Position numbers and translations under genes: made by a program. From an uncultured Gammaproteobacteria bacterium (GTDB lineage Bacteria > Patescibacteriota > Patescibacteriia > UBA10025 > JAHIVO01): 64,000 nucleotides of DNA. Below, in pieces: positions 9,256 through 51,795 of the stretch. The DNA lies in contig CAZQBL010000025.1 of assembly GCA_964592105.1 (NCBI GenBank), forward strand, positions 58 to 64,057, in the 5' to 3' direction. The stretch's first letter is position 1. The number at the start of each line of letters is the position of its first letter. Under the pieces are notes generated by a model. The model saw only the letters and a program-made list of their open reading frames with translations, searched no databases and was not told where the DNA came from.

Positions 9256-10155
9256 ATGAAAAATAACAATAATAAAAAAATTACCAAAGCCATTATCCCG
9301 GCGGCTGGTTTTGGTACACGCTTTTTGCCGGCCACCAAAGCTCAGCCTAAGGAAATGTTGCCCGTGGTGGACAAACCAGTTATCCAATACGTGGTCGAGG
9401 AGGCTGTGTCCGCCGGCATCGAGGATATTATTCTAGTGACCAGCTGGCAAAAAAGAACGCTTGAAGATCATTTTGACTATTCCCTGGAGCTGGAAAAACA
9501 GCTAAAAGATCGCGGAAAACTCGAACAATTAGAAGAGGTGCGGCGCATCGCCGGCATGGCAAACTTCATCTACGTGCGGCAAAAAGGCCCCTATGGCAAT
9601 GCCACGCCTGTGATCTCCGCTTCGCACTTGGTCAAAAATGAACCATTCGCCGTACTTTGGGGCGATGAATTTTTCCGCAGTAACCCGCCTCGTTTGAAGC
9701 AGATGATGGAGGCCTATGAAGTCTATGGCAAATCAATTATCAGTGCCGTCAGAATTCCCAACAAGAAAGACTTATCAAAATACGGTATTGCGGAAATAGA
9801 GCCCGTAAAAAATAATATTTATAATATTTACAAAATCAAATCACTGATAGAAAAACCAAAACCAGAAGAGGCTCCTTCGAATCTTGCTACCCATGGAGCA
9901 TATTTATTCACGCCCGAGATTATAGACTGTCTCAAGGAAATAAAACCGGGCAAAGATGGCGAGTTATGGCTGGTTGACGCCATCAAGTTACTCATGACCA
10001 AAGAAGATGTTTATGCCTGCGAGATCAAAAATAGCCGGTACTACGACACCGGCAATAAATTAGAATACTTGAAAGCTTGCCTTGATTTGGCGCTCGAACG
10101 CGAGGAACTGCGGGAGCCGTTGCTTGAATACATAAAAAAGATAAAAACTTCATGA
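9256..10155 (+). CDS. galU: UTP--glucose-1-phosphate uridylyltransferase
   Basis: KAIIPAAGFGTRFLPATKAQPKEMLPVVDKPVIQYVVEEA is the canonical GalU N-terminus. Confidence 0.85.
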   Translation: MKNNNNKKITKAIIPAAGFGTRFLPATKAQPKEMLPVVDKPVIQYVVEEAVSAGIEDIILVTSWQKRTLEDHFDYSLELEKQLKDRGKLEQLEEVRRIAGMANFIYVRQKGPYGNATPVISASHLVKNEPFAVLWGDEFFRSNPPRLKQMMEAYEVYGKSIISAVRIPNKKDLSKYGIAEIEPVKNNIYNIYKIKSLIEKPKPEEAPSNLATHGAYLFTPEIIDCLKEIKPGKDGELWLVDAIKLLMTKEDVYACEIKNSRYYDTGNKLEYLKACLDLALEREELREPLLEYIKKIKTS

Positions 10156-11543
10156 AAACATTAAGCATAAATAAGCGTGGACTTTCTAAAATCCTGATTA
10201 TCTCCCTTTTGGGATTTATCGTTTTGGTTATCGCCGGGATAGCGATCATAGCTCTTCAACCGAAAAAGGTACCGCCAAAAAGTGTGACCCTGACTATGTG
10301 GGGGGTCTGGGACGAAACCACCGACGTAGCGGATATGATCAACGCTTACCACACCGCTCATCCCTACATTACTATCAACTACGTTAAAAAAAGATTCGAG
10401 GAGTTTGCCGATGCTTTGGTCAATGGCTGGGCCACCGATACTGGTCCGGACATTTATGCTCTGCCCAACACCTGGCTCCGCGAATACAGCACTGACTTCA
10501 TAACCCCCATGCCAGCTACGACCAAAATTGCCTTTTATGAAAATAAAAAAATACTTTTTAAATCAGAAAAGAAAATCAGCTACGTCACCAGAAATTCTTT
10601 AACCCCCAATGACATCAAAAGAGATTATATCGACGTCGTTTACAAGGATATCATCATTGATGGAAAAATCTATGGCCTCCCTCTCGGTGTCAACACCCTA
10701 GTGATGTACTACAATAAAGATCTGCTCAACCGCGCTCATCTGGCCAAACCGCCAGCTACTTGGAACGATTTTGTCAACGCTGTGGAAAAAATCACCATCA
10801 TTAATGATCGGAACGAAATCATTCGAGCCGGGGCCGCCCTGGGCACCTATGACAACATCCCCAATGCCAGCGACCTAGTCACTCTGCTGATGCTCCAAAA
10901 TGGCACTCCCATGACCACGGGAGAAAAAGTTACCTTTGATCGGCCCACTGGCGCAGAACAAAATTACTACCCGGCCGAACAAGCTTTAAGATTTTATACC
11001 GACTTTGCCAGCCCGGAGAAATCAGTCTATACGTGGAACGAAAATATCACCACTAATGCTTTTGATTTATTCGCTCAGGGAAACTTGGGATTTCTTTTTG
11101 GTTATAGATACCAGCAATCAGAAATAACCTCGCGAGGCATGAGCACTGATGCCTTTAGTATTGCCCCCATGCCGCAGATCAACCCGGACAATGAAATAAA
11201 CTTTGCCGACTACTGGGTTTATACCGTAGCCAAAAAATCTAAATACGCTAATGAAGCCTGGGCTTTTTTACAATATGCTGCTGACGCTAAAAGATCGCAA
11301 CCATATGATGAAAAAACCAAACAAACAAGCGCTCTACGCTCAGTTATCTCTGAACAAATAGAAGATCCGGACATAGGCATATTCGCTCAACAAGCTCTCA
11401 CAGCCCAGAGCTGGTACCGCGGTAAAAACCCCCAAAAAGCCGAAGAATATTTCGGTGATATGATAAAAAGTGTTGTAGCCAGGACTTCTGATATAAAACA
11501 GGCAATTATTCTGGCGGCTCAGAAAATTCAACAAATCTACTAA
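10152..11543 (+). CDS. extracellular solute-binding protein (ABC-type sugar-binding family 1 fold), N-terminal TM anchor; no permease/ATPase nearby
   Basis: TM anchor ILIISLLGFIVLVIAGIAIIAL followed by a ~430-aa periplasmic-binding-protein-like domain (TMWGVWDE..., YYNKDLL...). Assignment rests on overall pattern. Confidence 0.5.
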   Translation: MKTLSINKRGLSKILIISLLGFIVLVIAGIAIIALQPKKVPPKSVTLTMWGVWDETTDVADMINAYHTAHPYITINYVKKRFEEFADALVNGWATDTGPDIYALPNTWLREYSTDFITPMPATTKIAFYENKKILFKSEKKISYVTRNSLTPNDIKRDYIDVVYKDIIIDGKIYGLPLGVNTLVMYYNKDLLNRAHLAKPPATWNDFVNAVEKITIINDRNEIIRAGAALGTYDNIPNASDLVTLLMLQNGTPMTTGEKVTFDRPTGAEQNYYPAEQALRFYTDFASPEKSVYTWNENITTNAFDLFAQGNLGFLFGYRYQQSEITSRGMSTDAFSIAPMPQINPDNEINFADYWVYTVAKKSKYANEAWAFLQYAADAKRSQPYDEKTKQTSALRSVISEQIEDPDIGIFAQQALTAQSWYRGKNPQKAEEYFGDMIKSVVARTSDIKQAIILAAQKIQQIY

Positions 11544-11551
11544 ATAAGACG

Positions 11552-12586
11552 ATGATTGAAATAAGAAAAATTACCAAATTATCCATTATCTTTTGTCTAG
11601 CACTAGTTGTTTTGACAATGAACGCCGCGCCAGTCAAGGCTTATGAAGTTTATAAAAATGGTTTTACCATAATTCCCGAGGAATGCTTGGGCAATCAGGT
11701 GGCCACACAGCAAACCGAGCAGTGTGATATTAACTCCTTTGTCCAACTGTTCGTCAACCTAGCCGCCGTCGGCCTTAAAGTCCTGCCCTATCTGGCTATG
11801 CTCATGATCATCGGCTCGGGATTTTATTTTGTATTGTCTGGTGGCAGTGCTCAAAAAATCCAGCAAGGGAAAAAAGCTTTCACTTCGGTAGTCATCGGGG
11901 TTTTAATCGTCATCGTTTTGGCTTGGGGCTTGTCAGCCATGATTGTTTACTTACTGACCGGGGAAAAAGGCGGCTTTCTTTTTCCGGGATCGCCATTTTC
12001 AAAAGAATGGTGGGGCGGTGGAACCATTGAACAGCCAGGACCGGATACCCGATGCTGTTTTGTTCAAAACATTGGATGTAAAGAAAATATCACGGCTGAT
12101 GAGTGTGCGGCTATCGGGGGAAGACAGCTCGATGCCGGACAATCCTGTCAAAGCTATACAGCTTGTCAAACTTTGTCTAAACCCGGCTGCTGCGTACCCT
12201 CTAATGTTAATGATCCAAACTGTCATGGCCCTAACTCGACTGGATGTTTGGATTTCTCCGGTACTACCCATAACCCCAACCGGTGCCCACAGATAGGTCA
12301 GTGCATTTTTGGTGGCGTGGGCGACTTGGCTGCCTGGGGATGCTGCCTTAAAGACACTGGGGGCTGCGAAGAACTGGCTTTTTTTGAGTGCAATGGCAGT
12401 CACCGCGCTGGAGTAGATTGCAATACCCTGTCTGTTTGTACCGGTTTTTGCTGTAGGTTGCTAAATACTAAATGTCTGCAGGGCGTAACTTATGATTACT
12501 GTACTGCTCCGCCACCTTCCGGCCGTGGTGGTGCAATTCTCAATAAAGGCGCTTGTCCTTATTTCTGTCCACTGTCCACAAATTAA
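11552..12586 (+). CDS. TrbC/VirB2-like pilin domain fused to a C-terminal cysteine-rich (~24 Cys in ~190 aa) extracellular domain
   Basis: Signal/TM, then MLMIIGSGFYFVLSGGSAQKIQQGKKAFTSVVIGVLIVIVLAWGL (hydrophobic segment, GG, K-rich loop, second hydrophobic segment) parallels the two downstream pilin-like genes. The C-terminus carries repeated CC/CxxC patterns (CCFVQNIGC, GCCVP, WGCCLKDTGGC, FCCRLL). Confidence 0.5.
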   Translation: MIEIRKITKLSIIFCLALVVLTMNAAPVKAYEVYKNGFTIIPEECLGNQVATQQTEQCDINSFVQLFVNLAAVGLKVLPYLAMLMIIGSGFYFVLSGGSAQKIQQGKKAFTSVVIGVLIVIVLAWGLSAMIVYLLTGEKGGFLFPGSPFSKEWWGGGTIEQPGPDTRCCFVQNIGCKENITADECAAIGGRQLDAGQSCQSYTACQTLSKPGCCVPSNVNDPNCHGPNSTGCLDFSGTTHNPNRCPQIGQCIFGGVGDLAAWGCCLKDTGGCEELAFFECNGSHRAGVDCNTLSVCTGFCCRLLNTKCLQGVTYDYCTAPPPSGRGGAILNKGACPYFCPLSTN

Positions 12587-12598
12587 TATACTTTTCCT

Positions 12599-12970
12599 AT
12601 GAAACTAAAAAAATTATTTCCCCTCGCCTTGATCTTAATTGTCTCCGTGGTTTTGGGTTTGTCGCTGGCCTCATCGCCCTCGGTTTTAGCCGCTAGCAGT
12701 CCCCGTTTGCCAAATCCGCTGGGTGGCAACGCTGACCTCATGACTGTTTTATTGCGGGTGATGCAGGTTGCCCTGGCTCTGGTTGATATTTTTGCTCTGT
12801 TCATGTTTATCCTTGGGGGGTTTGAATTCCTTATTTCCGCCGGCAACCCCAACATGATTAACCGCGCCAAAGACACCCTGATTTGGGCCACCATTGGTAT
12901 TGTCGTCATTACCTTAAGCTACAGTATTCTAAAATTCATTTTCGAGGCTGTGCAAAAAGGTGCTTCCTGA
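12599..12970 (+). CDS. TrbC/VirB2-like pilin-family protein (paralog 2)
   Basis: Signal peptide (VLAASS), NPLGGNADLMTVLL, ILGGFEFLISAGNPNMINRAKDTLIWATIGIVVITL: two hydrophobic segments with a GG...K loop, as in T4SS pilins. Confidence 0.55.
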   Translation: MKLKKLFPLALILIVSVVLGLSLASSPSVLAASSPRLPNPLGGNADLMTVLLRVMQVALALVDIFALFMFILGGFEFLISAGNPNMINRAKDTLIWATIGIVVITLSYSILKFIFEAVQKGAS

Positions 12971-12975
12971 TTAAT

Positions 12976-13004
12976 TTGACAAATACTGCAGTTTGGTGTA
13001 CAAT
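12976..13004 (+). promoter_or_regulatory. consensus sigma70-type promoter (TTGACA, 17-bp spacer, TACAAT) for the 13053 pilin gene
   Basis: Seen directly: TTGACA 12976-12981, 17-nt spacer, TACAAT 12999-13004; SD AGGAAAGGGGGTG lies 7 nt before ATG 13053. Confidence 0.65.
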
Positions 13005-13052
13005 GACGACGTTAGTAAAAATTAAAGATTTTTAAGGAAAGGGGGTGAAACA

Positions 13053-13406
13053 ATGAAAATTTCAACAAAAGTAATGAGTGGCCTAATGATGGTTACCCTG
13101 TTAGCCCCTTTTGCCGCTTCAGCTTTAACTATTGAGACAGTTGGCAACACCATCGGTTTGGGTACGGCTGATCTGAAAGAAACCGTTATCAACATTATCC
13201 AGTGGGTTCTAGGCCTATTGGGCTTAATCGCCGTCATTATGATTTTGATCGGCGGCTTCCAATGGATGACAGCCGGTGGCAACGAAGAGAAAGTGGCCAG
13301 TGCCAAGAAAATAATTTCAGCTGCAGTTATCGGTTTAATCGTGGTCTTGCTGGCTTGGGCCATCGTAATCTTCGTCGTTCAGACAACCACTAATGTTACC
13401 ACCTAA
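13053..13406 (+). CDS. TrbC/VirB2-like pilin-family protein (paralog 3; monocistronic, likely highly expressed)
   Basis: Signal peptide FAASA|LT, IQWVLGLLGLIAVIMILIGGFQWMTAGGNEEKVASAKKIISAAVIGLIVVLLAWAIV. Flanked by a consensus promoter, strong SD and terminator. Confidence 0.6.
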   Translation: MKISTKVMSGLMMVTLLAPFAASALTIETVGNTIGLGTADLKETVINIIQWVLGLLGLIAVIMILIGGFQWMTAGGNEEKVASAKKIISAAVIGLIVVLLAWAIVIFVVQTTTNVTT

Positions 13407-13438
13407 ATTAGTTTGAGATATAACTATATAGAATAGCT

Positions 13439-13475
13439 CCCCACACCAATGTATTGGTGTGGGGGTTTGTTTTGG
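13439..13475 (+). terminator. rho-independent terminator (perfect 12-bp stem CCCCACACCAAT/ATTGGTGTGGGG, 2-nt loop, T-rich tail)
   Basis: Seen directly: ccccacaccaat-gt-attggtgtgggg followed by gtttgttttgg. Confidence 0.85.
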
Positions 13476-13501: not shown

Positions 13502-15445
13502 ATGACGCTCCCCCAAAAAATAACCGATTACTGCGAGCAAAACAGTCTCCGGATAATGTGGATTTTGATTGCTTTGTATTGTGTACTTGTTTCCCTATTA
13601 TGTTTGCTAAAATTCGCCAACTACGGTTACAATGCCTTAGATTTGGGCATCTACAATCAAGTTTTTTACAACTCGGCTCAAGGAAATTTTTTTGATTTCA
13701 CTATCCATCCCCATTCGTACTTGGGAGATCATTTTGAAATTTTCATCGTTTTATTACTTCCGTTTTATCTGCTTTGGCCATCTCCCCAGACACTGCTCAT
13801 CATTCAAACTGTATTTTTGGCTTTGGCCGCTTGGCCGCTTTATTTAATAGCCAGCGCCAGACTAGGAAAAAAATACGCACTGGTCATGGGGTTAATTTTT
13901 CTATTTAGTCCACTGATCCTCAATACCAATTTGTTTGAATTTCACCTTTTGGCTCTGGCTATTTTCTTTTTGCTTTGGGCTTTCTATTTTTTTGAAAAAA
14001 ATAAATTCGGCTGGTGGCTGGTCTTAGCCCTCTTAGCCTTAACTATTAGAGAGGATGTAGCGTTGGTTCTCATAATGTTTTCGTTGCTGGCCTTTTTAGA
14101 GAAAAAAAGCTGGCCTTGGAAAATTTGGCCAGCTGGGCTGGGACTATTTTGGTTCATTATTACTCTAAAAATAATTTCAGCGCTAAATACCTACGGGCAA
14201 TATAAGTTCTTCTATTACTACCAATGGTTAGGCGCTAACTGGTCTGAAGCCTTCCATAATATTTTCACCAAACCATTATTAATTGTTCAACGTTTTTTCT
14301 CCCCGGACAATATTGTCTTAACAATTATCTTGATCGTTCTCTTTGCCGGATTGCCCCTCAAACGACCGAAATTTTTATGGCTGGGATTGTTACCCTTTGT
14401 TCAACTAACCTTGGCTAGTTTTCCCAAGATGCCAATACTGGAAACGCACTACACATCTCTTTTAATTCTTCCTCTCTTTATCGGCACCATATATGGACTG
14501 GCAAAAACTAAACAATCACAAAAACCAATATTTTTGCTAATATTAACGACCATAACCCTATACTCAGCTTTCACACTCGGACCAGTCGGCGGAGTCTTTA
14601 AGTTTATTATTAATGAAAAGCCGGAGACCAAATTATCAATTGCCTTGAAAAATGAATTAGTACAACAAATCCCTTCTCGCGCCAAGGTCGTCGCAACTTA
14701 TGATTACCTAACTCGACTTTCTGGTCGGCCGGACGTATTTTCTTTGCACTATGTCTTTCGGGGAACCAAACAATATTCTTCAGAAAAATATATTTTGCCG
14801 GAAGATGTGGAGTATGCCGCTATTGATTTCTCGGATCTAATAACCTATCAAATCCAATTCTCCCGGGAAAATTTCTACCGAAGCGGCTATCAGAGAGTTA
14901 AAGATTTACTTTTAAACGACTTTGGGCTAGTTCAAATCGCCGACACTCAATCTCTCTGGAAAAAAAACCTTAAATCAAAAACAAAGTTAGTGGAATTTGT
15001 CACTGATTTTACTATTGACAATCCTCAATATTACTATTTTGATAATAAAATAGCTTTTTTGGGGTACTCAACTCCAAAAATAACCACCAGCAACAAAATT
15101 CCACTTATTGATATTTCTTTTTTTTGGAAATCGCTGACGACTTTAACCGAAGACTATCAGCTTCGAATTACTTATCTGGATCAAAACGGAAAATCTTTAT
15201 ACTCGCGCTATTTCCCGCTGGCCTACGGCCTCTACCCAACCAGCCAATGGCCCCAAGAAAAAATCATAAAGACCAACCAGTGGCTGGCATTGCCACAAAA
15301 ATATTCAGGTCAAGCCGTCCAATTAAAAATAAATTTGGTTAGGCTTCAGGGTTATCTTGGGTTGGATAATTTAAAATCGGCTCAGGTAAAAATAACAGAG
15401 GCCGAAGTTATTGGTGAGTCTATTTTTATAAAACTCTTAAAATAA
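13502..15445 (+). CDS. DUF2079-family large polytopic membrane protein (putative GT-C-type glycosyltransferase)
   Basis: LDLGIYNQVF....HPHSYLGDHFEIFIVLLLPFYLLWPSPQTLLIIQTVFLALAAWPLY matches the DUF2079 signature. Start moved to ATG 13502 because the ORF-track start (13454) lies inside the upstream terminator hairpin. Confidence 0.55.
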   Translation: MTLPQKITDYCEQNSLRIMWILIALYCVLVSLLCLLKFANYGYNALDLGIYNQVFYNSAQGNFFDFTIHPHSYLGDHFEIFIVLLLPFYLLWPSPQTLLIIQTVFLALAAWPLYLIASARLGKKYALVMGLIFLFSPLILNTNLFEFHLLALAIFFLLWAFYFFEKNKFGWWLVLALLALTIREDVALVLIMFSLLAFLEKKSWPWKIWPAGLGLFWFIITLKIISALNTYGQYKFFYYYQWLGANWSEAFHNIFTKPLLIVQRFFSPDNIVLTIILIVLFAGLPLKRPKFLWLGLLPFVQLTLASFPKMPILETHYTSLLILPLFIGTIYGLAKTKQSQKPIFLLILTTITLYSAFTLGPVGGVFKFIINEKPETKLSIALKNELVQQIPSRAKVVATYDYLTRLSGRPDVFSLHYVFRGTKQYSSEKYILPEDVEYAAIDFSDLITYQIQFSRENFYRSGYQRVKDLLLNDFGLVQIADTQSLWKKNLKSKTKLVEFVTDFTIDNPQYYYFDNKIAFLGYSTPKITTSNKIPLIDISFFWKSLTTLTEDYQLRITYLDQNGKSLYSRYFPLAYGLYPTSQWPQEKIIKTNQWLALPQKYSGQAVQLKINLVRLQGYLGLDNLKSAQVKITEAEVIGESIFIKLLK

Positions 15446-17105
15446 TTATTGGGCCCTCATCAAAAACCTTCTCGGCAAAAGACTGCCTAATTAGCCAATC
15501 ATCATTGGCATCTTTTTTTTGATAATAAATATAATCAATGGAATTAAACCGGAGAAATTGTTTCTTCTCCTGAACGCTTCCTTGAGTTCCGTCAAAAAAC
15601 CATTGTAGTGCTTCTTTTTTCTCCTCGGCCTGACTGCTTAGATCACTGTGGCCGTAGTAAACCTTGCGCCCAGTGTAAGCCGGGATAAAATTACCGACGA
15701 CTCTTTCTGAAAGAATAACTGTATCTTTCGGCGCGTTGAGCTTAAGCCAGCGAAAACCATTGACTTGAGACGAAGTCAAATAATAAGGGATGTCCTTTGT
15801 CTTATAGGCCACCATATCGCGGGCAATTAAATAAACCGTGGTGGAAAACGAGGCGACCACAAACAACCAAATAAAAATGGTTTTCAAGAAAAAAGATAAT
15901 TTACCGTTGATCATGTTCTTCAGCCGGACAAAAATAAAATCAATGGCCAAAATGGCCAACATAACCATCGGCACATGAAGGCCCTCTGACATTCGCCGCT
16001 GAAACCGCAGAGGAAAATACAATGATAAAGCAATGACGACAAACCAGGTGCCCACAAAAAGCCACTCTTTTTTTCGATGTTTTATGATCAAGATAAGCCC
16101 AATTAACCCCAAGACCCCGATCAATCCATAACCCGTTACATACCACCAAAACGAAGGCGACATGGTCACATTCTGACTCCCCCAGCCTTTGTAACCATCA
16201 ATAAAATTATAAATAAAATAGTAATACAAAACACTAGGTAGCGCTATTAAAAAAATTATTGCCAATTTTTTTATATACAAAAAAGCTAAGCGTGGCACGA
16301 AATCCCTGTCGAATAAAATTCTACTTACCAAATATACGCCCAGAACACCAAAAACTATAAAAAGATCGTAGGGATGAATAAAACCCAACAGTAAAGCCAA
16401 AAAACCAATAATGGCTGATTTACTATGGCCCGATTTGTCCTGATTCAGCATGAACAGCAAGAAAATCGAAATGATAATAATCAGCGCCAGAATAAACAGC
16501 GGATTGTGGAAAATTGTCAAAAAAGTTAGGGCTTCCGGCACCCATAAGTCCACGGAAAATTCGCCCTGTAAATACTGGTTGACATTAAAAACAGGAATGA
16601 ACAGACCGAGTCCGGTAGTAAATACCGCCACAATCAGACAAAGCCTGCGCCATTTTACCTCGCTAAAAAATTTACTGAATAAAATGTACAAAATAATCAA
16701 AAAAATTACCAACAGAAAAATACGGCTCAATTGAAAAGCTGCGGCATTAGATAAATTGAACTCCTCAGCAAAAACTGCCAGTAGATTCCACTGGGGGTGA
16801 AAAAGTAAGGCCGGTTTAACTTCCGGGCTGTATAAGTTTTGAAACAAAAAGTTTCCCTGCCGTGCTTGCTCAATAAATGAATAATAAACATTCACATCAC
16901 CCGGGGTTAATTCATGGATGCCGGTATATTGCATGTCCCCAGGGGTCGTCAACCAACCGTAAACATAAGGCGCACTGGTCACTATCACGGCCAGTAATAT
17001 GACAAACCAAACGAATCGCCATTCGCCCCTTTCAATTATTGCCACTGAATTATTTTCGGCCATAAATATTTTTATGATCTTTTCCTTAATCGCCACATCT
17101 GCCAC
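15426..17105 (-). CDS. large polytopic membrane protein, putative GT-C glycosyltransferase (paralog of 24071..25693)
   Basis: More than 10 predicted TM helices. N-terminal block WRFVWFVILLAVIVTSAPYVYGWLTTPGDMQYTGIHELTPGDVNVYYSFIEQARQG is shared with the 24071 protein. Confidence 0.45.
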   Translation of the reverse strand: MADVAIKEKIIKIFMAENNSVAIIERGEWRFVWFVILLAVIVTSAPYVYGWLTTPGDMQYTGIHELTPGDVNVYYSFIEQARQGNFLFQNLYSPEVKPALLFHPQWNLLAVFAEEFNLSNAAAFQLSRIFLLVIFLIILYILFSKFFSEVKWRRLCLIVAVFTTGLGLFIPVFNVNQYLQGEFSVDLWVPEALTFLTIFHNPLFILALIIIISIFLLFMLNQDKSGHSKSAIIGFLALLLGFIHPYDLFIVFGVLGVYLVSRILFDRDFVPRLAFLYIKKLAIIFLIALPSVLYYYFIYNFIDGYKGWGSQNVTMSPSFWWYVTGYGLIGVLGLIGLILIIKHRKKEWLFVGTWFVVIALSLYFPLRFQRRMSEGLHVPMVMLAILAIDFIFVRLKNMINGKLSFFLKTIFIWLFVVASFSTTVYLIARDMVAYKTKDIPYYLTSSQVNGFRWLKLNAPKDTVILSERVVGNFIPAYTGRKVYYGHSDLSSQAEEKKEALQWFFDGTQGSVQEKKQFLRFNSIDYIYYQKKDANDDWLIRQSFAEKVFDEGPIIILRVL

Positions 17106-31595: not shown

Positions 31596-32684
31596 ATGCC
31601 TGCCTCGCCCAGAATTCAAAAATTGATCAACGTTTCCAAGGAGGTCATCTGCGACTGCGCCTTGGAAAACGGAGCCATCGTAGCCGCCAATACCGACAAA
31701 CCATACTCGCCCAAAGAGGCTGGAGACTATCGGTTAGTCTGGATTAGAGATGCATCTTTTTGTTGCGTCGCCGCCGAACTGCTTAATTTACCTATTCAGG
31801 AGCCGTTTTTTCGATGGGTAGATGAACGCCCAGAGGATTTTGAGCGCGATAAACTGCTCTACTCAAATTACTCGACCAACGGCCGCATTGCGACCATGGG
31901 TAAGCAATTTCAAGCAGACCAGACCGGGACCCTACTCTGGGCAATTTTTATGCATTATAAAAAAAATTTAAAAGAGGCTCTCAAATTCAAAAATCTTATC
32001 GAACGCCTAGCCGATGGTCTCTGTGCCCACTGGGATGAAGATCATTTTTCCATCTCCACTACGGATCTATGGGAAGTGACAGAGCGACGAACATCGACCC
32101 GATTGAAAAATAACTTTACCTATTCGCTGGCTGCCTGCGCCCGCGGCTTGATTTGCGCTAATGACATGGTTTCTAATCATCTATGGAAAGAAACGGCTAT
32201 GCAGATGATTAAAAAAATAAACGATGCTTACGACAAAAACAAAAAATATTTTCTGCGAAATCAGGGCCGGATCGCCGATTTTAATGTGGACGCATCGTTG
32301 CTAGGGCTGGTTTACCCTTTTGAAATTTGCGAACCACTAGATGAACGAATCGCGAATACAGTCAAGATGATGGAAAAAACAATCGTCGAGAACGGCGGCG
32401 TTCACCGGTTTCAGTTCGATTATTTTGACAGCGAGGGCTCAGCTCAAGAAGGCGGGGGCGCCTGGCCAGTCTTGAACTGCTGGATGGCAATTTACTGGTC
32501 CTTGGCCGGAAACAAGACAAAAGCTCTGAAATACTTCGATTGGGTGGTCGAGCGCGCTCCGAAATTTAATTTTTTCCTGCCCGAACAATACTTTGCCGAC
32601 GATATACGCATCGGTATTTATCCACTTGCCTGGAGTCATGCCATGTTCATCATGGCTTGCCACTACCTCGGCTATTTAACCTAA
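31596..32684 (+). CDS. glycoside hydrolase family 15-like protein (glucoamylase/glucodextranase catalytic (alpha/alpha)6 domain)
   Basis: YRLVWIRDASF matches the GH15 Y.Y.W.RD motif; C-terminal W-rich helices (WPVLNCWMAIYW). Confidence 0.55.
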   Translation: MPASPRIQKLINVSKEVICDCALENGAIVAANTDKPYSPKEAGDYRLVWIRDASFCCVAAELLNLPIQEPFFRWVDERPEDFERDKLLYSNYSTNGRIATMGKQFQADQTGTLLWAIFMHYKKNLKEALKFKNLIERLADGLCAHWDEDHFSISTTDLWEVTERRTSTRLKNNFTYSLAACARGLICANDMVSNHLWKETAMQMIKKINDAYDKNKKYFLRNQGRIADFNVDASLLGLVYPFEICEPLDERIANTVKMMEKTIVENGGVHRFQFDYFDSEGSAQEGGGAWPVLNCWMAIYWSLAGNKTKALKYFDWVVERAPKFNFFLPEQYFADDIRIGIYPLAWSHAMFIMACHYLGYLT

Positions 32685-32688
32685 TCGT

Positions 32689-34152
32689 ATGCCACGAATA
32701 CTACGGATAGCCAGTATTTCATCCGAAGTCGCTCCCTATTCAAAAACTGGCGGCTTGGCTGACGTAGCTAAAGCTTTACCCAAAACTCTCTCCTCACGAG
32801 GACACGAAATAATCATTCTGACGCCGTTTTACAGTTTTATAAAAAAACAGGAGTTCAAATTCGAAAATGTAGTCACCACTTCTCAACTGGCCGTAACAGT
32901 GGGCAAAAGAGAGTTCCCTCTCTATTTTAAGCAGCTTGTCATCTCGACCAATTTAAAAGTTTACTTCGTCGGCAATGAGGAGTGTTTCGGCCGTCACTCC
33001 AAAATCTACGGCTACCCCGATGACAACCTGAGATTTATGGTATTTGATCTAGCCTGTCTCTCCTTCCTAGAATATCTCCAATTCAAACCAAACATAATCC
33101 ACTGCCATGACTGGCAAACCGGCTTAATACCCAATTTTCTTGCTTATCACCGCAACGCCTATCCCTCCTTGAATAAATCCGCCACGGTCTTTACTATCCA
33201 CAATCTAGCTCATCAATTGGGGACGGATTGGTGGATGATACCTAAAGATAAACGCGACAATGGCAAGGAACTGCCGCCGGTCGAAGACAATAAAATAAAT
33301 AATATAAATTTTACCAAAAGAGCAATTCTTCATTCGGATATTATAAATACAGTCAGTGAGCGCTATGCCCAAGAGATTACTACCCCAGAATACGGCCAAG
33401 AACTGGATAAATACCTTAAACACCGTCAGGACGACGTTTTTGGAATCATCAACGGCATTGATTATACCGTGAATAATCCGTCGTTTGATGTCAATATAAA
33501 ATACCGCTATGACTGGAACTCATTAAGACGGAAGAAAAAAAATAAATTGGAGCTGCAGAAAGAACTCGGACTGGAACAGAGCGAGGATATTCCGCTCATC
33601 GGTGTGGTCAACCGTTTAAGCGAACAAAAAGGCTTTAACCTTATCATGGAACTGATAGATGTTCTGATGCGGCTCCGTCTACAGATTGTCGTAGTCGGCA
33701 GCGGCAACAAAGATTATGTCAAATTCTTCAAAAAAACCGCCAAGAAACATCCCAAGAAAATCAGCATCTATACTCCTTTTAATGAACGAATGGAATCCTT
33801 GGTCTATGCCGGTTCAGACATGTTCTTAATGCCTTCGCGCTTCGAGCCCTGCGGCATTTCCCAATTAAAAAGCCTGCGTTACGGTTCTATCCCCATTGTT
33901 CACGAGACCGGCGGTCTTTCCGACACCATCACTGACTTCAATCCCAAAACTAGAAAAGGCAACGGCTTTGTCTTTAAAAAATTTACCCGAGAAGATTTTC
34001 TGATAGCGCTGTCACGCGCTCTGGAAACATATAAATACCCTCAGGTCTGGGAATTTCTAACCTGGAACAGCATGCGACAATCATATTCCTGGGAACTCCC
34101 GGCTAAAAAATATTTAAAACTATACGGCCTAGCCCTAAAGAAAAAACACTAA
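32689..34152 (+). CDS. glgA: glycogen (starch) synthase, GT5
   Basis: KTGGLADVAKALPKTL and C-terminal E..GISQL...YGSIPIVHETGGLSDT. Confidence 0.85.
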   Translation: MPRILRIASISSEVAPYSKTGGLADVAKALPKTLSSRGHEIIILTPFYSFIKKQEFKFENVVTTSQLAVTVGKREFPLYFKQLVISTNLKVYFVGNEECFGRHSKIYGYPDDNLRFMVFDLACLSFLEYLQFKPNIIHCHDWQTGLIPNFLAYHRNAYPSLNKSATVFTIHNLAHQLGTDWWMIPKDKRDNGKELPPVEDNKINNINFTKRAILHSDIINTVSERYAQEITTPEYGQELDKYLKHRQDDVFGIINGIDYTVNNPSFDVNIKYRYDWNSLRRKKKNKLELQKELGLEQSEDIPLIGVVNRLSEQKGFNLIMELIDVLMRLRLQIVVVGSGNKDYVKFFKKTAKKHPKKISIYTPFNERMESLVYAGSDMFLMPSRFEPCGISQLKSLRYGSIPIVHETGGLSDTITDFNPKTRKGNGFVFKKFTREDFLIALSRALETYKYPQVWEFLTWNSMRQSYSWELPAKKYLKLYGLALKKKH

Positions 34153-34156
34153 AAAA

Positions 34157-35377
34157 ATGATCTGGGCAAACTTCTTCCATATTTACCAGCCACCGCGCTG
34201 GCCAAAAACAATCATCGCCAAAGTAGCTCGACAAAGTTACCGGCCGTTTCTAAAAATTCTTGACCGTCACCCGGGTTTAAAAATTACCCTTAATATCTCC
34301 GGCTCACTCACTGAACAGCTGGCCAAAAATGGCTTTCTTGAAATCATAAAAAACATAAAAGCACTGGCCCATAAAAGGCAGATTGAACTTGTGGGCACTG
34401 CCTTATATCATCCGATATTACCACTCCTTCCAGCAAGTGAGATCATTAGACAGATTGAACGGAACACCCAGCTTAATAAAAAATTTTTCGGCCATCACTA
34501 CCAACCGCGTGGATTTTTTCCGCCAGAGATGTGCTACAGCAAGAAAGTGGGGGAAATCTTAGAAAAAATGAAATTTCAGTGGCTAATCCTTGACGAAATT
34601 TCCGCCAATGGTAAATTAGGAGAAATAAAATACGACCGCGCTTACCTAACCTCCAAAACGGGGCTGCAAATAGTCTTCCGCAACAGAATCATCAGCGATT
34701 ATCTTTCTTTTCATAGTGATCTCCGACGACCAAATAACTTTTGGTCGGCAGTCCGGCGCGATGGTCGCAGCAATAAAATATTAATTACCGCCATGGACGG
34801 TGAAAATCTCGGCCATCATCGTCCCGGACTTGACCGGCTGTGGGAAAAATTGGTAACGCACACGACGGTTCAGACCATGACCATCAGCGGATTACTGGCC
34901 CATTATCAAAAAGAAAAAATAATTCAACCAAGAGACGCCAGTTGGTCGTCGCGAGAGATTGAATTGCGCAAAAATAATCCATACGGCCTCTGGCACGATC
35001 CGACCAATCCTATTCACCACTGGCAATGGCAGCTGATTAACAAAGTAATTAAGCACCTCAATGCCAGCAAAAAGGGGAAACAGCACCATCGGGCCCGACG
35101 ACTGCTTGACCAACAACTGGCTTCGGATCAATTCTGGTGGGCTTCGGCCAAACCTTGGTGGAGTCTTGACATAATCGAAAAGAAAACCAACGAATTGGTG
35201 CACACTGCTTGCCTGGTTAATGGCGACCGCTCAATAAAGAAAATCGGAGAAAAAATCATTAAACTGGCCAGGGCCTGGCAGCGTGAACAAAAATTCCAGA
35301 CCATCGCTCGAAATTATCTGGCCGCGGAAGAACGTGATAATGTCCGCTTCATTGGAGGAAAAAAAATTAGTATTTGA
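34157..35377 (+). CDS. glycoside hydrolase family 57 protein (alpha-glucan branching/amylase-like), paralog 1
   Basis: GH57 blocks FHIYQPP (HxHxP-like), ELVGTALYHPILPLL, GFFPPEMCY (nucleophile Glu), AMDGENLGHH (acid/base Asp) align with Thermus GH57 branching enzyme. Confidence 0.6.
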   Translation: MIWANFFHIYQPPRWPKTIIAKVARQSYRPFLKILDRHPGLKITLNISGSLTEQLAKNGFLEIIKNIKALAHKRQIELVGTALYHPILPLLPASEIIRQIERNTQLNKKFFGHHYQPRGFFPPEMCYSKKVGEILEKMKFQWLILDEISANGKLGEIKYDRAYLTSKTGLQIVFRNRIISDYLSFHSDLRRPNNFWSAVRRDGRSNKILITAMDGENLGHHRPGLDRLWEKLVTHTTVQTMTISGLLAHYQKEKIIQPRDASWSSREIELRKNNPYGLWHDPTNPIHHWQWQLINKVIKHLNASKKGKQHHRARRLLDQQLASDQFWWASAKPWWSLDIIEKKTNELVHTACLVNGDRSIKKIGEKIIKLARAWQREQKFQTIARNYLAAEERDNVRFIGGKKISI

Positions 35378-35499
35378 TAAACCGCCACTAATTTATCATC
35401 ACTAATCTCACTAATACTTTATATCAACTAATGTAACTAGAATAATAAAATTAGTGAAATTCGTGAATTAAAATTCGTGGCCATAACACAAATAAAACT
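35378..35499. repeat. intergenic short direct repeats (CACTAAT x3; AATTCGTG x2) between the tandem GH57 genes
   Basis: Seen directly: ccactaatttatcatcactaatctcactaatac ... gaaattcgtgaattaaaattcgtggcc. Confidence 0.5.
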
Positions 35500-36882
35500 A
35501 TGATTTGGGCAAATTTCCTACACATTTATCAACCACCGACACAAAAAGAATTCTGGGTAAAAAAAATAGCCAACGAATGCTACCGCAAACTCACCAAGGG
35601 ACTAAAAGAAAATCCGCAGGCAAAAATAACCATGAACATCAACGCCGTATTGACCGAGTTGTTTGAAAAATGCGGCTGTCAGGATATCATTGCTGATATT
35701 AAATTTCTGGCCGAACGCGGACAGGTAGAGTTAACGGCCAGCGCCAAATACCACCCCTTTTTGCCGATGATGCCAAAAAATGAAATTATCAGACAAATAA
35801 AATTAAACACGGAAACCAACCAAAGGTTCTTTGGTAAAAAAGCCTATAATCCGCAAGGGTTTTTCCCGCCAGAAATGGCTTATAATCGCAAAGTTGGCGA
35901 AACCATAGCCCAACAGGGATATAAATGGTTGATTCTAGACGAACTAGCCTATTCAGGAAAAATGAAAGACATTGACTGGTCGCAAATATACACACTTAAG
36001 GGTATTGATAATTTTTTCATTTTCTTCAGGGAAAGGGAGGCCAGCTTCCGTATTCTCTCTGCAGAAATTGGCATGAGCGTATTTTCCGGAAGCATGCTAA
36101 TTAAATTGTTGGGTGATCGCATTAATAAAAATGAATATCTGATTACTGCTATGGATGGCGAAACATTCGGCCACCATCGGCCAGGGCTTGAGGATCTTTT
36201 ATTTGATATGTATAAGACAAAAGAATTAAAAGCTGTAACTATCTCGGAACTACCCGGGCTCTTCACTAAGAGGGTAGCCGTAGACCCTCGTCCTTCTTCC
36301 TGGGCGCTAATGAAAAAAGACATTGAGCGCAACACGCCATTCTCGCGCTGGAACGACAAAAATAATATTATTCAAAAAATGCAGTGGCGACTAACCAACC
36401 TAGCGCTTAAAACCATAAAATCAACAAAATCGAATACAAAAACATATACTAAAATCCGGCACGATCTTGACCGAGCCGTTCATTCTGACCAATACTGGTG
36501 GGCTTCGGCCATGCCCTGGTGGAGCATTGAAATGATTGAAGCTGGCGCAAAAGATTTATGCAATGTGGTACTTGAGTCCCCCGTGCCAAAAAAAGACAAG
36601 GAGCTGGCGAAAAAATTGTATCAAAAAATCCTTTATACGGCTTTTGATTGGCAACGTTCAGGTAAAGTGGATGCCATGGCCAAATCTGCCGACGAAGATG
36701 TGACCCAGCGTATCACTACCGAAATGCCCTATATCCCCGAGGAAGAATTCAATAAAATTGTAGGGAACCTAGAAAAACAGATGTTCGAGGCAGCCCAAGC
36801 CCAAGAATACGAACGCGCTGCCCAGATCCGCAATCGCGTCAACGAGCTGAAAGAAAAAAAAGATCAAATAACCAGAAAATGA
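35500..36882 (+). CDS. glycoside hydrolase family 57 protein, paralog 2, with C-terminal UVR (UvrB/UvrC-like) motif
   Basis: Same GH57 blocks (FLHIYQPP, ELTASAKYHPFLPMMP, GFFPPEMAY, AMDGETFGHH). C-terminus EEEFNKIVGNLEKQMFEAAQAQEYERAAQIRNRVNELK matches the UVR domain pattern. Confidence 0.6.
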   Translation: MIWANFLHIYQPPTQKEFWVKKIANECYRKLTKGLKENPQAKITMNINAVLTELFEKCGCQDIIADIKFLAERGQVELTASAKYHPFLPMMPKNEIIRQIKLNTETNQRFFGKKAYNPQGFFPPEMAYNRKVGETIAQQGYKWLILDELAYSGKMKDIDWSQIYTLKGIDNFFIFFREREASFRILSAEIGMSVFSGSMLIKLLGDRINKNEYLITAMDGETFGHHRPGLEDLLFDMYKTKELKAVTISELPGLFTKRVAVDPRPSSWALMKKDIERNTPFSRWNDKNNIIQKMQWRLTNLALKTIKSTKSNTKTYTKIRHDLDRAVHSDQYWWASAMPWWSIEMIEAGAKDLCNVVLESPVPKKDKELAKKLYQKILYTAFDWQRSGKVDAMAKSADEDVTQRITTEMPYIPEEEFNKIVGNLEKQMFEAAQAQEYERAAQIRNRVNELKEKKDQITRK

Positions 36883-37877
36883 AAATGGCCAAAAGAAATA
36901 TCAAAATTGTTCTCAACGAATCATTCATGAAGCGTTTTTTGACTCAAAACATAAAAACTTTTTTCCCGGCTGCCAAAAAAATCTCTTTTTTCTACGGAAA
37001 ATACATGCGCTTTCTTTCGGAAGAAAGTTTCCTGGTGCGTTATGAAATTGATCTACTCCTAAAAAATGGCTTAATTATCACAAAAATCCTGCGTGGCAAT
37101 CGGGTCAAACCAGAGACTTATCCAATTATGAAATTTTTCTTCCAACTATTTCAAAAACGAGGTCGCTACGTTGTCCCTCGGCCGCTCGCCTATTTCAAAG
37201 ACCTGAAGTTTCTCCTCTATGAAGAGTATCGTGGCTGGGTTCTGCGGGAATTCGACCACCAACTGGATGTTCTAATGAAAACCGTACCAAAAATAGCCAG
37301 GCAACTGGCGGAAATCCACAACTACTCGCCGAATCTGGGCCCTACCAGAACTATCCGAGATGAAATAAAATATTTTGACTTATTAAAAACAAAAATTAAT
37401 CAGTTCCTGCCTCAATCAAAGATTAAATTCAATAAGCTTGCCGAGCGTTATCTAATTAAATTGAAGCAAATCGATTCGCTGTCAAAACATGTTTTGAATC
37501 ATGGCGATTTCCAAGGCAGCAATATCATCTATGATCTCCGCACACAAAATATCGGGTTTATTGATTTCGCTTCAGCAGTGCGCACCTCGCCAGCCAACGA
37601 TGTGGCCACTTTTTTAACTCATGCTCGAGCTATGCTTTGTTATCTTTTCCCCAGAAACAAAGTTGACCGGCTGGAAAAACTTTTTCTCAAAAACTATTAC
37701 GCTAAAGTTTCCAAAAAAATAGCGAAAATCGTCCGTCACGACCTGTCCACCTACCAAGGGCGCATCGGTTTGGACATAATCACCACCACGGCCGTCTTTA
37801 CCGAGTACAATAAAAGCCCATATTATCAAACCATTATCAACGAAATGTTTCGCCGGGCTTATCATAATCTGAAATAG
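36879..37877 (+). CDS. phosphotransferase-family kinase (APH/choline-kinase-like fold); maltokinase-like role possible
   Basis: Brenner motif LNHGDFQGSNIIYD plus IDFASA (DFG-like). ATGA-overlaps the preceding GH57 gene. Confidence 0.5.
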   Translation: MKMAKRNIKIVLNESFMKRFLTQNIKTFFPAAKKISFFYGKYMRFLSEESFLVRYEIDLLLKNGLIITKILRGNRVKPETYPIMKFFFQLFQKRGRYVVPRPLAYFKDLKFLLYEEYRGWVLREFDHQLDVLMKTVPKIARQLAEIHNYSPNLGPTRTIRDEIKYFDLLKTKINQFLPQSKIKFNKLAERYLIKLKQIDSLSKHVLNHGDFQGSNIIYDLRTQNIGFIDFASAVRTSPANDVATFLTHARAMLCYLFPRNKVDRLEKLFLKNYYAKVSKKIAKIVRHDLSTYQGRIGLDIITTTAVFTEYNKSPYYQTIINEMFRRAYHNLK

Positions 37878-38399
37878 TCATTGATCACCATGCCAAAAAA
37901 ATTACACCTCGAACCGCCAGCACCTCTGTCCAATTATCTAAAAAAATCTTGCCGAGTTTTATCCGGACGCCTCAATCATTTATCCAGTTAATTGCCAATC
38001 AATCGTCGGGCCGCATAACAATTATGCTTTAATTGATTTTAGCCAAAATCATCGGGGGGCTTCGCGCTGTATGATATTGGCGCGTTTCTGGCCCACCTCG
38101 GTTTGGTTCTAGTACTATATTACACAACCATACAGATAAAAAAGCTTAAAAAAAATTTATCAACCTATTTCCGCGCCAATCACGGGATAAAAAATACCAA
38201 AAAGTTACAACGAACAATCAGTCTGTTCCGGGTGAAAGCGGTTCTGGATTTTCTGAAATTCACCCTCAAGATAAACCGCCACTCAAATTCCACATTAAAA
38301 CGAACTAGACAACGGTTCCAAGTGGTTATTAATAATACGTTGCAGCTCGCCGAATCAAAAAATCCAATAGTCTATAATATAAATAGTGAAAGCGTTAAT

Positions 38400-39872
38400 A
38401 TGAAAAAAATAAAAGTTCTTTTTACTGCCGCGGAGCTGAATCCGATGGCCAAAGTCGGGGGGCTGGCTGACGTCGTGGGCGCCTTGCCAAAGGCTCTGAA
38501 GAAACTCGGAATTGACGTGCGAATCGTTATCCCTAAATACGGATCAATTGATGCTGAAAAATATAGTCTGAAAAAAATAGCTGACGGCATTGAAATTCCG
38601 TTCAAACACTCCACAGAAAAAATAGGGCTATTTGAAACCCTTCTCCCAAACAGTCAGGTTCCGGTTTATTGTATCGACAATTATAACTACCTGGGGCAGG
38701 GCGGGGTATATTTTGAGGCGAACGGCTCTTCAACCACCTTAAGTCGCGAAGCCAAACGGTTTACCTTTTTCTCGCGGGCCTGCCTAGAGATATTCGCACC
38801 TCTCAACTGGTACCCGGATATCATTCACTGCCACGACTGGCACGTCGGACTGGTGCCGCTGTTATTAAAAATCCAAACCAAAAAAAACCCGCGTCTTCAA
38901 AATATAAAAACAGTTATATCGATTCATAATCTCGAATATCAGGGCAGATATAACGCCCAGCAAATCATGGATTTAGTGGGCATTCATTCGGATGATTATC
39001 CCACCTTATCGGTTTTGCATGACGGCGACCTGATCAGTCTGCAGCAGGCTATCATAATCAGTGATTATATCAGCACGGTCAGTCCGTCTTACGCTGCAGA
39101 GATACTTACTCCGGAGTACGGCGCGGGACTGAATATTGATCTGGCCAAACGCAAAAACCGGCTTATTGGTATTTTAAACGGCATTGATGTTGATCGCTTC
39201 AATCCTGCCACTGATCGGGACATTAGCGCCACTTTTACAGCTCACGATACCACCGGAAAGAAAATCTGCAAAACCACCCTGCAAAAAACCTGCGGGTTTC
39301 CCACAAACAAAAAAATCCCCCTCCTGGGCCTTGTCTCCCGTTTAGCCGAGCAAAAAGGACTTGAGCTGGTGGCTGAGATTGCCGATGATCTAACCAAAAT
39401 GGGCGTCCAATTGGTCCTGCTCGGTACCGGACTACCATCGCTTGAGGCGCTGATGAAAAAAATGGCAGACAACCACCCCAAAACTATCCATTGTAAAATT
39501 GCTTTCGATGCCAAATTCGCTCAACAAATATATGCCGGCGCTGATATGTTTTTAATGCCTTCAAAATTCGAGCCGTGCGGTCTGGGACAAATGATAGCAA
39601 TGCGCTATGGCACGGTCCCAGTGGTGCGGGCTACCGGCGGACTCAAAGATACTGTAATTGACTATAACCCGGCCACTAACCAGGGCACCGGTTTTGTCTT
39701 CACCGGCTATACTTCCCGAGAGTTGCTGGTGGCCATTGAGCGCGCTCTAAGTCTTTATCAAGAGCCAAAAAAATGGCATACTATAGTCAGTCGAATTATG
39801 TGTGAAGATTTTTCCTGGCGCAGTTCCGCAGAAAAATATCAAAAGCTATATAATAATATAATAAACTTTTAG
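38400..39872 (+). CDS. glgA: glycogen (starch) synthase, GT5, second copy
   Basis: MKKIKVLFTAAELNPMAKVGGLADVVGALPKAL; C-terminal E.CGLGQM...YGTVPVVRATGGLKDT. Start set at ATG 38400; the long N-terminal extension in the ORF track has no similarity. Confidence 0.85.
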   Translation: MKKIKVLFTAAELNPMAKVGGLADVVGALPKALKKLGIDVRIVIPKYGSIDAEKYSLKKIADGIEIPFKHSTEKIGLFETLLPNSQVPVYCIDNYNYLGQGGVYFEANGSSTTLSREAKRFTFFSRACLEIFAPLNWYPDIIHCHDWHVGLVPLLLKIQTKKNPRLQNIKTVISIHNLEYQGRYNAQQIMDLVGIHSDDYPTLSVLHDGDLISLQQAIIISDYISTVSPSYAAEILTPEYGAGLNIDLAKRKNRLIGILNGIDVDRFNPATDRDISATFTAHDTTGKKICKTTLQKTCGFPTNKKIPLLGLVSRLAEQKGLELVAEIADDLTKMGVQLVLLGTGLPSLEALMKKMADNHPKTIHCKIAFDAKFAQQIYAGADMFLMPSKFEPCGLGQMIAMRYGTVPVVRATGGLKDTVIDYNPATNQGTGFVFTGYTSRELLVAIERALSLYQEPKKWHTIVSRIMCEDFSWRSSAEKYQKLYNNIINF

Positions 39873-39879
39873 AAGAATA

Positions 39880-51474: not shown

Positions 51475-51795
51475 ATTTTTTTAATTTATATATAATATTA
51501 AGTTAAAGAATAAATATATAAGGAGGGTGGAAAAGTGGATAGATTTAAGAAAGTAGCTTTTTAGTTTGTTTTTAAAAATATTTTCTGGTGGACGTTTAAT
51601 TTTTTGATGTGAATATGTTCTTGGTTGATTGTGTCTGGTTTGGGCGTAACTTTCTAATCGGTGAACTAGGGTTATTTGATATGGTTTTTTTGTTCAGATC
51701 AACCAACAAGTTGTCAACAAAATAATTGTATTCGCTACACCAGTGCTCCACAGATTGATACGGCTTGCCCACAGGATATTAACAGCCCATAAGCC
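51475..51795. promoter_or_regulatory. putative oriC segment in the dnaA-dnaN intergenic region (AT-rich DUE plus DnaA-box-like 9-mers)
   Basis: AT-rich tract ttttttaatttatatataatattaagttaaagaataaatatata; DnaA-box-like AGTGGATAG, TTGTCAACA, gCTCCACAg; placement between dnaA and dnaN. Confidence 0.5.

Follow-up and report, generated by a model that had tools for sequence, protein, structure and literature searches.

Introduction

Much of bacterial diversity belongs to the Patescibacteria, which appear to live in attachment to other cells. Classical pilins of the TrbC/VirB2/TraA type are small, Sec-exported proteins with two helices joined by a basic loop; they are stored in the membrane, with their termini outside, before polymerisation. 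Here we analyse three tandem genes for VirB2-like pilins, p1, p2 and p3, in a 64,000-nucleotide stretch of contig CAZQBL010000025.1 (positions 58 to 64,057; assembly GCA_964592105.1), which is called the window below. The first of these pilins runs on into an ectodomain of tandem six-cysteine repeats. The locus is a well-defined case: it links a near-invariant candidate major subunit, and a candidate minor subunit whose six-cysteine repeat varies in copy number, to a sugar-binding protein and glycan enzymes, and not to a secretion machine.

Arrays of VirB2-like genes have been surveyed in 3,035 Patescibacteria genomes with the Pfam profile PF18895 and other profiles (Quinonero-Coronel et al. 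2025, PMC12102498). That study recorded 441 arrays of 2-11 genes in 383 assemblies, with approximately 25% identity within arrays; the pilins lie near virB4 in just 1135 of the 1948 VirB4-positive assemblies, and VirB4 is listed for 8 of 10 Kerfeldbacteria assemblies (class ABY1; Table S1, PMC12102498). For S. epibionticum, the only species tested, the pilin array within the type IV secretion system (T4SS) locus proved essential (Wang et al. 2023, PMC10633639), and a 2025 review regards such T4SSs as the only monoderm ones with potential pili (PMC12857230). An earlier note on this DNA, made from the letters alone, had considered it unusual that p1-p3 lie apart from any such machinery. Tandem VirB2-like paralogues at a distance from the machinery are, however, already known, and since arrays distant from virB4 are common in Patescibacteria (PMC12102498), the “orphan” state of p1-p3 is ordinary.

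The array in the window resembles those described in Patescibacteria (e.g., the six-pilin array of Ca. Southlakia epibionticum ML1) in that its members belong to PF18895, have a signal peptide and a hairpin, are divergent tandem paralogues, and are encoded on the chromosome of a monoderm, ultrasmall host without a relaxase. It differs from them in lying outside a T4SS locus and inside a fixed block that runs from a galU-like gene and a substrate-binding protein (SBP) gene to a DUF2079 gene. Moreover, its p2 and p3 orthologues are highly conserved, in contrast to the hypervariability that has been suggested for arrays of other Patescibacteria, and p1 bears a cysteine-repeat ectodomain (130-500 amino acids in the family) that is not described in the literature we examined. 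What appears to be new is the cysteine-repeat ectodomain on a pilin, a rare and clade-restricted fusion, the fixed linkage to a sugar SBP and DUF2079, and the dedicated expression unit of p3 together with its strong conservation.

With the classical pilins (Agrobacterium T-pilin, F-pilin), p1-p3 share the Sec-exported hairpin with a basic loop, but they have no PF04956, PDB sequence or specific fold match, and no VirB5-type tip protein or machinery adjoins them. RP4 TrbC and Ti VirB2 are cyclised head to tail, with which a long C-terminal domain like that of p1 is incompatible.

Results

Family assignment and predicted topology

The three genes and the elements that belong to them are as follows.

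11552..12586, + strand: p1, a PF18895 pilin with a C-terminal cysteine-repeat ectodomain, 344 amino acids (Pfam, local profile and AlphaFold2)
12050..12583, + strand: the four tandem six-cysteine “GCC” repeats of p1 (cysteine positions and spacing)
12599..12970, + strand: p2, a cysteine-free PF18895 pilin, 123 amino acids (Pfam, 36.1 bits)
12976..13004, + strand: p2-p3 spacer, sigma-70-type promoter TTGACA-17-TACAAT (11 of the 12 consensus positions matched)
13040..13047, + strand: Shine-Dalgarno sequence AGGGGGTG, 5 nucleotides ahead of the p3 ATG
13053..13406, + strand: p3, a cysteine-free PF18895 pilin, 117 amino acids, the strongest family match (55.3 bits)
13438..13465, + strand: intrinsic terminator behind p3, with a GC-rich stem of 12 bp and then TTTGTTTT

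The earlier note had taken these three open reading frames, which are indeed present in tandem on the + strand, for T4SS pilins from their pattern of residues. The guess at the pilin family holds for all three, though not as to the classical TrbC/VirB2 family. All three match the Pfam family T4SS_pilin (PF18895) above its whole-protein gathering threshold of 26.6 bits (p1: 27.0 bits; p2: 36.1 bits; p3: 55.3 bits), while none has a match at E ≤ 1 to PF04956, the family of the classical TrbC/VirB2 pilins. Against a local profile built from the three orthologue groups, p1 reaches 125 bits. The corresponding local family hidden Markov model, run over the window, finds p1-p3 and no further copy. 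Both p3 (E-value 2e-7, 30 bits) and p2 (E-value 9e-4, 19 bits) align weakly over their full length with the NCBIfam model NF045849, which represents pilin-like proteins of Mycoplasma integrative and conjugative elements (ICEs; the Mbov_0395 family). Both lineages are monoderm, but the two scores are below the cut-off of 40 bits and p1-p3 are not on an ICE. The profile of the three orthologue groups has no match in the PDB. An hhalign comparison with Agrobacterium VirB2 gives a probability of 1.3% and hence no sign of a relation, which is weak evidence. By these profile matches, p1-p3 are members of the Patescibacteria-type VirB2-like family (PF18895) and not demonstrably of PF04956.

A type IV (PilA-type) identity was considered and rejected: residues 1-45 of p1-p3 do not contain the G/F-x-x-x-E motif of a class III signal peptide, there is no Pfam match to N_methyl or pilin families, and the proteins have two helices, not one.

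The paralogues are approximately 22-34% identical to one another. Hydropathy shows in each a Sec-type signal peptide with an AxA-like site, followed by two long hydrophobic segments with a short Lys-rich loop between them; this layout, which the earlier note had described, is also borne out by the AlphaFold2 (AF2) model of p1. The loop pattern G-G-x-x-x-K...K-K is kept in all three orthologue groups. From the Lys-rich loop between the helices and the positive-inside rule, p1-p3 are predicted to be Sec-exported two-helix membrane hairpins with the loop in the cytoplasm and both mature termini outside.

The six-cysteine repeats of p1

The product of p1 consists of a signal peptide (residues 1-30), an outside segment with an invariant pair of cysteines (C45 and C58), a first helix (62-95), the loop SGGSAQKIQQGKK (96-108), a second helix (109-136), and a linker with an invariant WWGG (153-156); in the AF2 model the helices span residues 60-95 and 100-136. 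It runs approximately 200 residues beyond the second helix. The cysteine-rich domain is approximately 185 amino acids long, or approximately 190 when measured from the WWGGG linker, and, of the 27 cysteines of p1, 24 lie in residues 168-339; the earlier note had given approximately 190 amino acids and 24 cysteines. Cysteine makes up 13% of the domain as compared with 0.82% of 45 other proteins of the window (binomial P approximately 2e-21). The domain had also been described as dense in CC and CxxC pairs. Four CC pairs are present, but there is no CxxC at all, no CxxH, and only 3 histidines.

The 24 cysteines are arranged as four tandem six-cysteine repeats that follow the scheme G-C-C-x(6-9)-C-x(7-8)-C-x(9-17)-C-x(3-5)-C:

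12050-12184, + strand: repeat r1
12185-12337, + strand: repeat r2
12338-12445, + strand: repeat r3
12446-12583, + strand: repeat r4

In the AF2 model of p1, built with a 14-sequence alignment, the repeats have a predicted local distance difference test score (pLDDT) of 70-83, and each forms a beta-hairpin with short helices. At E ≤ 1, the only Pfam match of p1 is PF18895 (residues 75-128), with none over the cysteine-rich residues 160-344; the domain has no NCBIfam match, and the repeat has no fold match in the PDB. A literature search on cysteine-rich pilins in Patescibacteria found no paper describing the repeat.

As judged from its sequence conservation, the cysteine-rich part of p1 is a real module, with a predicted extracytoplasmic location. 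The earlier note had suggested a module knotted either by disulfides or by metal. The extracytoplasmic site and the six cysteines per repeat favour disulfides, and we infer that each repeat is held by three of them; the metal half of the suggestion is unlikely for a domain that is extracytoplasmic and free of CxxC.

Adhesin-bearing minor or tip pilins (VirB5 on T-pili, the large minor pilins of type IV systems) offer an analogy in function only, that of a low-copy subunit with an outside domain beside a small, abundant major one. There is no homology, and the extra domain of p1 is fused straight to a VirB2-type hairpin and is built of six-cysteine repeats.

Distribution and variation of the pilin-plus-repeat family

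An exhaustive phmmer search with the cysteine domain alone among 1.84 billion representative proteins gave 7 matches. All 7 are pilins with the repeat, and the similarity begins at approximately residue 150-205, behind the pilin hairpin; the confinement of the repeat to pilins is the outcome of this single-sequence phmmer search only. A word-indexed homologue search with the same domain gave no match, the index being too insensitive for a domain that resembles low-complexity sequence. A profile of 49 single repeats likewise found nothing in the word-indexed search, where only 1 candidate got through the prefilter. Full-length p1 retrieved 16 cluster representatives from 5.8 billion clusters, among them one annotated “pilin” and one from Ca. 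Kerfeldbacteria. Among 185,579 species, each represented by a single genome, a scan identified 12 genomes with a p1-type protein, ten labelled Patescibacteria group bacterium and two labelled “uncultured Gammaproteobacteria.” Judged by the labels of its relatives, the source organism of the window is a Patescibacterium related to Ca. Kerfeldbacteria (class ABY1). The source samples JGI 3300022548 and SRR10519663 are groundwater. Assemblies with the gene block described below include GCA_016214565.1 (1.1-Mb contig JACROE010000002.1), JBMOKY01 (contig JBMOKY010000001.1, 1.15 Mb), JBAZWB01 and GCA_964419765.1. Two records named “uncultured Gammaproteobacteria bacterium,” L014 (CAZVMV010000002.1) and L020 (CAYPXF010000008.1), carry the full Patescibacteria-type gene block, and their name is probably a taxonomic mislabel.

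At least 14 orthologues of p1, 37-78% identical, retain the architecture including the invariant cysteines and the WWGG linker. In the alignment, the C45/C58 pair, the hairpin, WWGG and the cysteines of the first two repeats are invariant. The repeats vary in copy number from 2 to 10 per protein and in length from approximately 35 to 60 amino acids, yet exactly six cysteines are found in 91 of the 98 repeats of the family, and these six are the sole invariant columns across 49 aligned repeats. Cysteine counts in the tails of 19 members are mostly 12, 24, 30, 48 or 54, i.e., six per CC motif.

Two proteins depart from this pattern. The database member P0018 (215 amino acids) is a truncated or frameshifted version. 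P0029 (279 amino acids, from a JGI metagenome) is another pilin of PF18895; it has an insertion in its N-terminal part, and its C-terminal extension of approximately 100 amino acids is a different one and poor in cysteine. This extension indicates that the PF18895 hairpin can carry outside domains, and that doing so is not unique to the family with the GCC repeat.

Expression signals of p3

The promoter TTGACA-17-TACAAT in the p2-p3 spacer is the top promoter match of the region. An equivalent promoter precedes p3 in all 15 loci compared, several of which carry two in tandem. The same 15 loci share an identical Shine-Dalgarno sequence 5-12 nucleotides upstream of the p3 start and, behind the gene, a hairpin (-16 to -29 kcal/mol) with the same run as in the window. 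An own near-consensus promoter, a strong ribosome-binding site and a terminator thus accompany p3 at all of them. The tight or overlapping spacing of galU, SBP, p1 and p2, set against the separate signals of p3, suggests two transcription units: p3 would be monocistronic and strongly expressed, as is characteristic of a major structural subunit, while p1 and p2 would be transcribed with galU and SBP, probably at a lower level.

The tandem arrangement, with two near-consensus sigma-70 promoters ahead of p3, is seen in L003, L007, L012, L016, L017 and L021; the window has one. In L018 a second promoter is likely, seen by eye and missed by the regular expression. Public gene calls give p3 106 amino acids; the conserved Shine-Dalgarno sequence favours the start at 13053 and a product of 117.

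A conserved gene block without secretion genes

The genes around p1-p3 that complete the block are listed below.

9256..10155, + strand: galU-like sugar-1-phosphate nucleotidyltransferase (Pfam NTP_transferase, 8e-35), which opens the conserved block
10152..11543, + strand: sugar-type SBP (SBP_bac_1/8), membrane-anchored (Pfam, 2.5e-24)
13556..15445, + strand: DUF2079 polytopic membrane protein (Pfam DUF2079, 9.5e-59)
15426..17105, - strand: polytopic membrane protein of 559 amino acids, convergent, without a Pfam family, which closes the conserved block

We compared the loci found by exact protein look-up and those of all 12 species genomes. Wherever the contig reaches, the order galU-SBP-p1-p2-p3-DUF2079, followed by the convergent membrane protein, is identical. 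The genes beyond it differ between loci: upstream there are VTT/PGA_cap genes in some and MazG/PALP genes in others, and downstream the sets of glycosyltransferases differ. The earlier note had mentioned the SBP upstream and the glycan locus downstream as the only neighbours; both are there, but the neighbours are not incidental: the block from galU to DUF2079 is strictly conserved. In the window the galU stop overlaps the SBP start, the SBP gene ends 8 nucleotides before p1, and 12 nucleotides separate p1 from p2.

Across species, identity to the window is 67-76% for galU, 51-57% for SBP, 37-42% for p1, 59-74% for p2, 68-87% for p3, 32-42% for DUF2079, and 31-38% for the convergent membrane protein. 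The p3 protein is as conserved as galU. It is 116-118 amino acids long at all loci, and mature p2 and p3 are near-invariant. At its C-terminus, p3 has an outside tail rich in Thr (QTTTNVTT, window 13385-13403) that is similar in orthologues, and the p2 orthologues in L012, L014 and L015 have mature N-termini rich in Thr, Ser and Asn. Given the adjoining glycan genes, these tails and N-termini are possible sites of O-glycosylation.

The closest relatives of the SBP in the PDB are sugar- and maltose-binding proteins. Pfam scans, which covered essentially all open reading frames of at least 120 amino acids in the window, found no permease or ATPase of an ATP-binding cassette (ABC) transporter to partner it. 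The DUF2079 protein has no match in a PDB sequence search, and the 559-amino-acid protein has two weak, non-significant ones only (E-values 0.075 and 0.18). A literature search found no papers on DUF2079, and to our knowledge no activity of this family has been demonstrated. The JGI gene call for DUF2079 is a protein of 629 amino acids starting at ATG 13556. This is probably the start rather than the TTG at 13454 of the longest open reading frame, which overlaps the p3 terminator.

In Pseudomonas, the pilA-tfpW and pilA-pilO pairs consist of a pilin gene and then a polytopic glycosyltransferase that modifies the pilin. The window has a comparable order, with the polytopic DUF2079 gene directly behind p3 and a glycan locus (GT2, GtrA, PMT_2, GT87) beyond. 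The Pseudomonas proteins are type IV pilins, however, and a glycosylation of p1-p3 is purely conjectural.

As the earlier note had stated for VirB4, VirB6, VirD4 and PilA-type prepilins, the Pfam scans recognise none of these in the 64-kb window, nor VirB8 or a relaxase. The sole secretion-related gene encodes a PilB/GspE-type T2SSE ATPase with an MshEN domain (57121-58926, + strand; E-value 1.6e-113), and no prepilin, PilC or PilM was recognised beside it among the scanned open reading frames.

Discussion

We propose, with a probability of roughly 0.5, a VirB2-type structure with p3 as its major and p1 and p2 as its minor subunits, which would be assembled by a T4SS whose genes lie elsewhere in the genome and on which p1 would display a stalk of disulfide-bonded repeats. 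According to this proposal, p3 would be abundant and p1 and p2 would be present in low copy. A domain of 200-500 amino acids would be hard to pack on every subunit of a VirB2 lattice, which fits a low-copy or terminal position for p1. Locked by disulfides, its repeats might together make up a rigid stalk or an adhesin, variable in length, on the surface of the cell or filament, which may contact a host cell or glycan. A VirB4-type T4SS would extract the subunits from the membrane and polymerise them. The SBP, DUF2079 and other polytopic proteins and the glycosyltransferases might act on the same surface structure, either by glycosylating the pilins or by capturing host sugars. In Saccharibacteria, pilin arrays of this kind are essential (PMC10633639, PMC12857230). 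If the stalk is the element of host contact, it would be the first case of an adhesin module joined to a VirB2-type pilin, and would give a direct handle on host recognition in an uncultured lineage.

Several observations count against this proposal. At 16 related loci, no T4SS core gene is found closer than 8-10 kb to the cluster, and the constant partners of p1-p3 are the SBP and polytopic membrane proteins, not secretion genes. The literature examined reports no experimental sighting of a pilus made of a PF18895 protein. The Pfam score of p1 is borderline (27.0 against 26.6 bits). Confidence in the AF2 model of p1 is medium (mean pLDDT 68; predicted template modelling score 0.34), and the model of the cysteine domain alone, from 4 sequences, is poor (pLDDT 45). 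Finally, the disulfide bonding and the adhesin function of p1 are deduced from sequence only.

The main alternative, which we hold to be less likely, is an envelope module that is independent of any T4SS. The PF18895 hairpins would then serve as anchors in the membrane or belong to another kind of surface structure, and would act with the SBP, DUF2079, the polytopic proteins and the glycosyltransferases in building or decorating surface glycans or in capturing host oligosaccharides, with p1 as a cysteine-knotted surface protein. The block from galU to the convergent membrane protein is kept at every locus while the outer genes vary, T4SS genes are absent from all flanks examined, galU, SBP, p1 and p2 are tightly spaced or overlapping, and no transporter partner for the SBP is encoded in the window; the hairpin of P0029, moreover, carries a different C-terminal extension. 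In other Patescibacteria, however, PF18895 genes sit within T4SS clusters and are essential there (PMC12102498, PMC10633639), and the synteny may merely mirror the kinship of the genomes. The extreme conservation of p3 and its dedicated promoter and terminator suit a polymerising structural subunit, and no system is known to pair an SBP with two-helix proteins. A bolder variant is a self-contained, hitherto unrecognised surface apparatus with no T4SS at all, for example a filament or membrane array that captures or displays glycans at the interface of epibiont and host, with the cysteine-knotted stalk of variable length as its contact element; we regard it as doubtful. If the block does work without a T4SS, it would be necessary to reconsider whether PF18895 proteins should be annotated as secretion-system pilins.

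The remaining explanations concern the nature of p1 or the origin of the cluster. Binding of zinc or an iron-sulfur centre by the cysteine-rich domain, in place of disulfides, might account for the very high cysteine density. It is improbable for a domain that the positive-inside rule puts outside the membrane and that has no CxxC or CxxH motif and few histidines, and the even cysteine totals in nearly all members, like the six per repeat, suit paired disulfides. Pilin genes without nearby machinery and the weak match to the Mycoplasma ICE model might also point to a decayed conjugative or integrative element that no longer has its transfer machinery. We hold this to be very improbable: no integrase, relaxase, tRNA junction or break in composition is found in the window, which is core chromosome; the chromosomal context of the block is the same in 12 species; strong purifying selection acts on p2 and p3, whose expression signals are intact; and no patchy presence in close relatives, flanking repeats or pseudogenised copies were seen. 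An artefact of gene calling or assembly, in which a pilin reading frame runs into an unrelated one, could be suspected from the borderline Pfam score of p1 and from the truncated or frameshifted P0018. Identical p1 sequences on independent JGI, Logan and NCBI contigs speak against it, and the architecture conserved in the orthologues effectively refutes it.

Other features of the window

Behind the 559-amino-acid protein lies the downstream glycan locus, with GT2, PMT_2, GtrA and GT87-like genes. The - strand between 15426 and 29030 encodes a series of large polytopic proteins, several without a Pfam match (559, 433, 540 and 523 amino acids), interleaved with the GT2, PMT_2 and GtrA genes, weak GT87-like matches and an amine-oxidase/FAD protein. 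The region resembles a locus for polyprenyl-sugar-dependent glycosylation of the cell surface, some members of which have not been described.

The dnaN and dnaA genes (50371-53172, - strand) coincide with the minimum of the cumulative GC skew (approximately 50-52 kb), from which we conclude that the window spans the replication origin. Patescibacteria often site their T4SS close to dnaA, according to the cited literature; no T4SS genes are found within approximately 12 kb on either side of dnaA here. The window also holds aminoacyl-tRNA synthetases, a penicillin-binding protein, one tRNA, and a compact glycogen/starch-type cluster (31596-40821, + strand). This cluster comprises a GH15 gene, two GT5 starch synthases and two GH57 genes (one with a UVR motif), together with a kinase-like protein and a GalT-like transferase.

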